Shown: piece after piece, positions 24,573 to 25,382 of the stretch
Position numbering within the stretch: position 1 is the stretch's first letter
How the letters are laid out: every line of letters begins with the position of its first letter
Virus record (IMG/VR): IMGVR_UViG_2571042862_000001
Length of the DNA stretch: 63,762 nucleotides
Origin: a virus
Taxonomy: Duplodnaviria > Heunggongvirae > Uroviricota > Caudoviricetes
Strand: one strand, 5' to 3'
Position numbers and translations under genes: made by a program
The notes under the pieces: model-generated
What the model saw: the letters and a program-made list of their open reading frames with translations, nothing else
Databases searched by the model: none
What the model was told of the DNA's origin: nothing

Positions 24573-25382
24573 TTATTTGCTAAGAGCAGCGAATAATCGT
24601 TCGAAATCGATAGTATCTATAGCACGCGTAAGCGCCGGAAGTTCAGCCTCAAAGTACCCGTGTCGATCGTAAAAGAAGGGACCGAAGAGCGAGGCATGTT
24701 GGATTCTACTTCGCCCCAGCCCGGACACACAGTTAAGCCCATTACCGGCTAAAAGGCTAAAAAACTTCTCTGGATTATCGTGGTAAAGCTGGGAATCAAT
24801 GGTGGCGGTTAACTCTTCCATAGGGAAGCACACCCGCCTTGTCTCCCAGGAATATTTAGTCCGAAGCATAAATATTGCTTTCAGCAATTCACATTGAGCG
24901 CGGATCGCGTCCGGTTCATAGCCAGATATGGAGACATAAGCCACGTCCCTCATTCCTGCGTCATCTTTGAAAGTCACGATAGAAGTAACATCCAGCTCTT
25001 TTTCGAAAGAGCGGGCAGCATCTACTGGACGCTGAAGTAAATCATTCGACTTAATGCGCTCGAGAATCCCTCCCCACATATCATTTAGATATTCGATATG
25101 AGCCAAAACCTTATCAAGACACTCTCGTGTAAACCATTCAGTATGCCCGCCACCAGCGCTTTTCTCCCACGGCGCATTCCAGGGGAAAAAGGTTGCGTGT
25201 AAAGCCCGCTCAAGATTAACTATTGCCAAACGCGTACCACGATAGACCCGTGAAAGCGCAAAATCGGGACTCACTTGTAGCCCTTTAAACCGTGCCAATG
25301 GACCACATGAAATGCCGATTTTAAAAGTATCTCCATTCTCCGGCACCAGAACGTAGAGGTAGTGTTGTTTCTCTTCTTGCAT
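24573..25382 (-). CDS. T5orf172/GIY-YIG-like domain protein
   Basis: 269 aa; N-terminal YLYVLVPENGDTFKIGISCGPLARFKG and downstream GGHTEWFTRECL resemble the T5orf172 (GIY-YIG superfamily) pattern; sits between incA iterons and parA. Confidence 0.5.
   Translation of the reverse strand: MQEEKQHYLYVLVPENGDTFKIGISCGPLARFKGLQVSPDFALSRVYRGTRLAIVNLERALHATFFPWNAPWEKSAGGGHTEWFTRECLDKVLAHIEYLNDMWGGILERIKSNDLLQRPVDAARSFEKELDVTSIVTFKDDAGMRDVAYVSISGYEPDAIRAQCELLKAIFMLRTKYSWETRRVCFPMEELTATIDSQLYHDNPEKFFSLLAGNGLNCVSGLGRSRIQHASLFGPFFYDRHGYFEAELPALTRAIDTIDFERLFAALSK

Follow-up and report, generated by a model that had tools for sequence, protein, structure and literature searches.

The DNA analyzed here is a 63,762-nucleotide stretch of a virus of the class Caudoviricetes (IMG/VR record IMGVR_UViG_2571042862_000001), hereafter called the window. 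It belongs to a P1-like phage-plasmid of the RCS47/SJ46/JL22 type, to which it is 98.7-99.6% identical across the region studied. Between the replication and partition genes of this element lies an open reading frame of 269 amino acids (24573..25382, minus strand, ATG start), hereafter called the ORF, which encodes a nuclease-like protein of the T5orf172 family in the GIY-YIG superfamily. The ORF has a recognizable nuclease domain with conserved motif residues, occupies one defined position, is present in some P1-like elements and absent from others, evolves under relaxed selection, and has been inactivated repeatedly. The explanation that we place first, tentatively, is that it is a free-standing homing-type endonuclease gene, a dispensable passenger between the incA iterons and the promoter of the par operon (Ppar), inherited and exchanged together with the replicon cassette of P1-like phage-plasmids.

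Identity of the ORF

An earlier note, made from the letters alone, had placed an 810-bp ORF with an N-terminus of the T5orf172/GIY-YIG type between incA-like iterons and Ppar, and the coordinates and the profile search agree with it on both points. Residues 8-85 match the Pfam family T5orf172 (PF10544) with 26.8 bits (E=7.6e-6), above the gathering cutoff of 20 bits. MUG113 and Tox-URI2 also match, below their Pfam cutoffs, and the GIY-YIG model is absent among the Pfam matches up to E=1. The ORF is covered over its full length by PHROG 2876 (function unknown) and at its N-terminus by PHROG 681 ('endonuclease'), while no NCBIfam model and none of the PADLOC-DB v2 defence-protein families (up to E=1) matches it. 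RefSeq labels the protein 'GIY-YIG nuclease family protein', and its counterparts are FDJ53_gp090 in RCS47 and, by position, gp57 in JL22. The ORF is a real gene rather than a chance reading frame, because it is conserved at 93-100% in 401 plasmid records of PLSDB, its protein cluster contains 1241 full-length members, and its non-synonymous polymorphism lies below the neutral expectation.

The nuclease domain comprises codons 1-105 (25068..25382, minus strand). Y10, K21, G23, R31, E58, and E82 are invariant in 79 homologues of this domain, H62 and G79 are conserved in at least 90% of them, and 'KIG' replaces 'YIG'. By analogy with I-TevI and with Odn of phage ICP1, in which the equivalent glutamate (E180) is needed for cleavage (PMC8263062), the invariant residues are the probable T5orf172 counterparts of the Tyr, Arg, and Glu set of GIY-YIG nucleases, with corresponding catalytic roles.

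A replicon cassette different from that of P1

The earlier note regarded the ORF as wedged into the rep-par core of P1. This has to be revised, since the whole repA-iteron module is that of a different replicon. Homology to P1 (NC_005856) runs through position 24506 (99.1% identity) and resumes at 26766 (95.5%), and the non-homologous block in between (24507..26765, 2259 bp) stands in place of 1500 bp of P1 (L002 5108-6607) that contain the spacer, incA, repA, and the incC iterons. P1-like sequence is retained in oriR, over its DnaA box and GATC part, and in the promoter and operator of par. The iterons of P1, which have a 19-bp GATGTGTGCTGGAGGGAAA consensus, differ from those of the window, which are of the TCGCGTATAGTCAAC type; neither the iterons nor RepA is of the P1 type. 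The incA iterons of the earlier note need one correction: an incA-like array is present, but its repeats belong to the different replicon and are not the incA of P1. RepA of the window is 42% identical to RepA of P1, a figure also given for SJ46 (PMC5241659). The ParA and ParB proteins are 99.7% identical to those of P1.

The ORF belongs to this block, which is the published 'p0111' replicon of RCS47, SJ46, and JL22. In JL22, repA' (p0111) and the unknown gene gp57 were described as replacing the IncY repA (PMC9603915), and in pSvP1 '2 orfs inserted between repA and parA' were reported (PMC6906374). The absence of a gene at this place in P1, which the earlier note had stated, is correct: the interval between Ppar and incA in NC_005856 is non-coding only, with ~190 bp separating the first iteron from the -35 hexamer, and neither tblastn nor blastn detected a remnant of the ORF in this spacer.

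Distribution and homologues

The whole p0111 cassette is found in ~400 PLSDB plasmids at 95-100% identity, and the contiguous P1 arrangement in 143. Other PLSDB plasmids are compactly arranged and pair an IncY repA with a par operon of the P7 type, and none of the P1-type and P7-type IncY plasmids inspected has the ORF in the slot. Homologues were sought by word-indexed searches of 5.8 billion proteins and by an exhaustive HMMER scan of 1.84 billion representatives. Three other full-length lineages were recovered, P0004 (43% identity), P0009 (28%), and P0011 (25%), together with ~150 further proteins whose homology is confined to the N-terminal domain. The word-indexed searches returned close relatives only, and scans of genomes and plasmids gave no additional divergent full-length homologues; the full-length family is very small.

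All three homologue lineages are located on P1-like contigs in the same slot, in the order repA, iterons, ORF, parA. The locus L004 has iterons of the window type and a RepA 84% identical to that of the window. L050 and L051, both from Salmonella, have an IncY P1-like RepA (83% identical to that of P1) and GATGTGTGCTGGAGGGA iterons, the copies of which in L050 match the established P1 consensus. In L052 the iterons are of a third type and the par operon is P7-like. When L050 is compared with P1, P1 is without the ORF segment only, 213 bp corresponding to the 1017 bp of L050 7977-8993. The comparison of the interval across P1-like genomes, which the earlier note had proposed, therefore reveals sporadic presence at a syntenic slot: the gene is present in the window, L004, L050/L051, and L052, and absent from P1, the inspected IncY plasmids, and L003. 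The two findings that the note had named as contrary to its proposal, namely conservation throughout the P1 family with no nuclease match and a copy in reference P1, were both not obtained. A recent insertion into the P1 replicon is ruled out, for the cassette is wholly different and divergent homologues (25-43%) occupy the same slot elsewhere, which makes the gene an old tenant.

L003 (NZ_CP085065.1, 6001-7238) is a non-P1 phage-plasmid with a RepA 85% identical to that of the window; the gene for this RepA is surrounded by tail genes, and neither the ORF nor a P1-type par operon accompanies it. Initiators of the p0111 type therefore circulate outside P1-like elements too.

L004 and L050 have a common backbone (94-98.6% identity) but different cassettes and each its own ORF allele, and therefore the ORF moves along with rep rather than with par. 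In two independent backbones (window versus P1, L004 versus L050) the ORF lies inside the swapped block and near its edge. Strict co-inheritance of the ORF with RepA was considered and is ruled out by disagreeing identity matrices: between L050 and L052 the ORFs are 41% and the RepAs 43% identical, and between the window and L004 the ORFs are 43% and the RepAs 84% identical.

ParA, RepA, gp23, and UpfC are 80-89% identical between the window and L004, and PpfA and UpfB (window 27299-27631 and 27465-27914) are 48% and 56% identical and diverge almost as fast as the ORF. The idea that the ORF is an extreme outlier of divergence in the backbone is for this reason only partly true.

More distant T5orf172 proteins were observed in a comparable setting. 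P0098 (298 amino acids; L053/L055, 6001-6897 and 1451-2347) and P0154 (340 amino acids, with a Zn-ribbon; L058, 3377-4399) are each encoded directly upstream of an HTH_36 gene, a putative replication gene, on metagenomic, plasmid-like contigs with a ParA gene and a ParE-toxin gene nearby; the P0098 contigs also carry a relaxase gene. Here, too, T5orf172 genes lie within plasmid maintenance regions, which makes these loci a second example of such a setting.

Selection and recurrent inactivation

Selection was compared in 46 related loci. The ratio of non-synonymous to synonymous substitution rates (dN/dS) was 0.31 for the ORF, with similar values for both domains, and 0.02, 0.002, and 0.05 for repA, parA, and parB, respectively. 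The ORF has 32 synonymous and 38 non-synonymous segregating sites (ratio 0.35), which is fewer non-synonymous changes than neutrality predicts (binomial p=1.8e-5). Three independent nonsense mutations, W68*, S112* (in five loci), and Q228*, and one internal deletion/insertion were detected in it, and premature stops in repA, parA, and parB numbered zero in the same loci. With two or three distinct frameshift alleles and two fusion/insertion alleles added from the protein database, independent disruptions total at least seven. Broken alleles form clusters of their own: S112* is represented by two, of 151 and 43 members, a frameshift after W68 by one of 18, and a 168-residue remnant starting from M102 by one of 229, against the 1241 full-length members. 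The two ORFs of pSvP1 may be a split allele of the same gene. In L046 (6001-8344, one viral contig) the ORF is interrupted, the parts up to nt 294 and from nt 524 lying ~1.76 kb apart; the break is an internal deletion with inserted DNA, possibly an insertion sequence.

These patterns suggest a gene that is functional in most copies, dispensable, and repeatedly lost. The many disrupted alleles and the elevated dN/dS might also be expected of a decaying relic with no current function. Such a state is highly improbable, because a dN/dS of 0.31 is significantly below 1, most copies are intact, and neither the full-length frame nor the invariant motif residues have been lost in any of four lineages at 25-43% identity.

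The suggestion of the earlier note that the gene is of a selfish or defence type fits the relaxed selection and the recurrent knock-outs. A pure defence role, in which the ORF would act alone as an anti-phage or abortive-infection effector that the phage-plasmid carries as cargo, is very unlikely. What speaks for it is the nuclease identity of a fast-evolving protein with a patchy distribution on a mobile element. Against it, the defence and NCBIfam models searched gave no match, no sensor or partner gene is adjacent, and the position is fixed inside the replicon, outside the listed variable cargo regions with non-replicon genes (PMC9603915); knock-outs at high frequency, moreover, are not specific to defence genes.

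The C-terminal domain

Codons 106-269 (24576..25067, minus strand) encode a fast-diverging C-terminal domain. Between the window and L004 the N-terminal domains are 65% and the C-terminal domains 30% identical. An AlphaFold model of the protein was built with a 79-sequence alignment and has a mean predicted local distance difference test score (pLDDT) of 82.9. The N-terminal domain scores above 90 over most of its length and is predicted to adopt the GIY-YIG alpha/beta fold. Foldseek found no significant match of the model in the PDB, and its N-terminal domain matched phage T5orf172 proteins in BFVD, among them ICP1 ORF88 and several proteins whose annotation names a CapR-homology domain. The C-terminal domain scores ~90 at residues 157-215 and 46-70 in other stretches, and a winged-helix fold is predicted for it, with the WH1 domains of replication initiators as the nearest folds. 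This initiator-like fold is a prediction of moderate confidence, as only four sequences inform the C-terminal domain. The sequence of the domain has no Pfam match and no PDB match, and the 79-sequence profile has no relative with a solved structure. When a profile of the domain was aligned with six RepAs by hhalign, the probability was 0.2%, i.e., no detectable similarity; capture of the domain from the neighbouring RepA, as in Odn, was considered and is without sequence support in the hhalign, Pfam, and PDB comparisons. The domain is new for T5orf172 proteins and may be initiator-like.

The predicted fold bears on the main rival explanation, in which the ORF would be an exclusion nuclease directed against replication origins, like Odn of ICP1, and would be of advantage to the element that carries it rather than to itself alone. 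By this analogy the C-terminal domain would mimic an initiator WH1 and bind the iterons of rivals (P1-like plasmids, satellites, or incoming plasmids) or dock on their RepA, and the T5orf172 domain would cut that origin. The predicted C-terminal fold agrees with this, although all the structural arguments are modest; the ORF also adjoins iterons, and its C-terminal domain diverges fast though the cognate RepA and iterons are conserved. An exclusion role of this kind seems somewhat unlikely to us. The specific form of it, an initiator-mimicking nuclease in P1-like replicon cassettes that joins a T5orf172 cutter to a Rep-WH1-like domain and destroys rival origins through their iterons or RepA, is a shade more doubtful. 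If it were true, it would amount to a nuclease-based plasmid incompatibility, escape from which would select swaps of the whole repA-iteron cassette (IncY versus p0111 and rarer types). It would parallel the Odn-PLE arms race of ICP1, but between plasmids, and would extend to plasmids the principle of Odn, in which a nuclease borrows the DNA-recognition fold of an initiator.

Local architecture and a possible role in replication control

The ORF is flanked upstream by repA (25675..26559, minus strand), which encodes a Rep3-family initiator of the 'p0111' type with Rep3_N and Rep3_C domains, and downstream by parA (23208-24404) and parB (22190-23191), both on the minus strand. Between the ORF and repA lies the incA-like array (25417..25673) of six iterons, identified by 15-mer matches and present in both orientations: those at 25417, 25447, 25479, and 25541 have one orientation and those at 25635 and 25659 the opposite one. 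The start of the ORF is 35 bp from this array. Five direct origin iterons with the same 15-mer and a spacing of 21-22 bp (26641..26742) are the counterpart of incC. The ORF has the terminator that the earlier note had ascribed to it: directly after the ORF, a terminator-like element (24541..24565, minus strand) separates it from Ppar, with a GC-rich hairpin GCCCCTGAACGGGGC (24565..24551, minus strand), 8 nt past the stop codon, followed by TTTTTT. Ppar (24459..24487, minus strand) is common to P1, the homology to which stops at 24506, 19 bp upstream of the -35 hexamer.

A scan with the sigma-70 consensus from repA to the ORF gave no promoter for the ORF, which may therefore be transcribed by readthrough from the promoter of repA, which is autoregulated. 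Inside the incA-like array, half-iterons form a perfect 12-bp inverted repeat (25466-25477 and 25480-25491, minus strand: GACTACAGTCAA, a 2-nt spacer, TTGACTGTAGTC), ~85-110 bp upstream of the start of the ORF. The arrangement is similar to that of the operators, likewise inverted repeats, to which Rep dimers bind in pPS10- and F-type replicons. A further iteron-like 17-mer, TCGCTTATAGTCAACAT, 88% identical to the reference iteron, lies within the repA coding sequence (window 25942-25958).

With such surroundings the ORF might be a domesticated accessory of the replicon, a non-nuclease protein that binds DNA or RepA and acts as a repressor or as a modulator of handcuffing and copy number, in the manner of CapR. 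It adjoins the incA-like copy-control iterons, has no convincing promoter of its own, and follows an operator-like inverted half-iteron; according to its Pfam description, T5orf172 was originally characterized as a DNA-binding domain, and CapR, a satellite-encoded transcriptional repressor, has a DNA-binding domain homologous to that of T5orf172 homing endonucleases (PMC10448857). We regard an accessory of this kind as quite unlikely. The invariant residues of the GIY-YIG catalytic set would be needless in a pure binder. The replicon works without the gene, as in P1, in L003 with its 85%-identical RepA, and in the many natural knock-outs that persist, and the C-terminal domain is just 30% identical where RepA is 84% identical and the iterons are alike.

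Homing as the tentatively favoured explanation

A homing-type or conflict nuclease fits best because the motif is intact, the protein has a two-domain layout, presence of the gene varies at a single slot next to essential maintenance genes, the gene is partly independent of the RepA phylogeny, its constraint is relaxed, and its decay is recurrent. A nuclease domain combined with a variable DNA-binding domain is the general architecture of homing endonucleases, and the T5orf172 homing genes of ICP1 were called by their variable presence, frameshifts, and position beside essential genes (PMC10448857).

Cleavage, a target, and gene conversion are the parts of this explanation that we infer. The N-terminal GIY-YIG-like domain would cut DNA, and sequence recognition would come from the variable, winged-helix-like C-terminal domain. 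The target would be in related phage-plasmids without their own allele, probably in or near their rep-par region, and would be encountered through co-infection or superinfection of a lysogen. Repair of the break with the nuclease-carrying copy as template would spread the gene, and the neighbouring repA and iterons would be converted along with it. In a lineage where it had become fixed, the gene would be of no further use and would decay.

Several points weigh against homing and keep it tentative. Two P1-like elements are restricted by immunity and incompatibility in residing together. For the ORF, neither cleavage nor a target site nor a homing event is known. Its occurrence in the same slot in all four lineages, together with their deep divergence, looks more like long vertical residence than recent invasion, and its divergence is not extreme, given that of PpfA (48%) and UpfB (56%). 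As the P1 spacer contains no remnant, loss is indistinguishable there from never having had the gene. The recombination boundary is a weak argument for nuclease-driven exchange, because the junction must fall where par operon homology begins; one junction is common to all ~400 plasmids, which therefore record a single event. That the ORF lies within the swapped cassette and at its edge agrees with a nuclease-driven co-conversion of repA, but is not positive evidence for it.

The gene, its GIY-YIG label in databases, and the cassette swap were already known. The present analysis contributes a slot that is conserved in three replicon types, the pattern of decay, and the C-terminal domain, new for T5orf172 proteins. 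Resistance genes in Enterobacteriaceae are commonly carried by P1-like phage-plasmids, about half of which have the ORF-bearing p0111 replicon (PMC9603915). If the ORF encodes an active site-specific nuclease against related replicons, it could help to explain the discrete replicon types and the exchange of whole cassettes. Should it be no more than a homing gene in decay, it remains useful for tracing the history of the cassette and calls for care with P1-derived vectors and with typing schemes.

Elsewhere in the window, a homologue of dmt (30357-33398, plus strand, 1013 amino acids) was observed with C5 and D12 methyltransferase domains, Hint_2, Intein_splicing (below cutoff), and LAGLIDADG_3. 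These matches fit an intein that carries a homing endonuclease; the earlier note had spoken of a dmt intein.

Comparison with known systems

Within the literature library that could be searched, no paper was found linking GIY-YIG or T5orf172 to P1-like phage-plasmids, and no functional or domain analysis of the ORF. The 'p0111' replicon of RCS47, SJ46, and JL22 is the same DNA as in the window, with no difference at the sequence level. The ORF differs from the GIY-YIG homing endonucleases of T4 (I-TevI, Seg) and from SLX1/URI in having 'KIG' for 'YIG' and in showing no sequence-level match to solved GIY-YIG structures.

The T5orf172 homing genes of ICP1 and other phages (Barth, Dunham and Seed, 2023, PMC10448857) resemble the ORF in combining a T5orf172 domain with one variable putative DNA-binding region, and in being free-standing beside essential genes, variably present, frameshifted or truncated in some alleles, and located at the edge of a recombined block. 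They differ in three respects: the nuclease domain of the ORF is N-terminal; its C-terminal domain matches none of the CapR, DUF723, and DUF4397 zinc-finger domains, one of which is carried by 87% of the phage set (PMC10448857); and its host is the plasmid replicon of a temperate phage-plasmid and not a lytic phage genome. Homing is as yet unverified for the ICP1 genes too (PMC10448857), as it is unproven for the ORF. Odn of ICP1 (Gp88; Barth et al., 2021, PMC8263062) joins a T5orf172 nuclease to an initiator-like DNA-binding domain, as the structural model predicts for the ORF, whose N-terminal model matches ICP1 ORF88 in BFVD; both are associated with an iteron-type origin and linked to the swapping of replicon modules.
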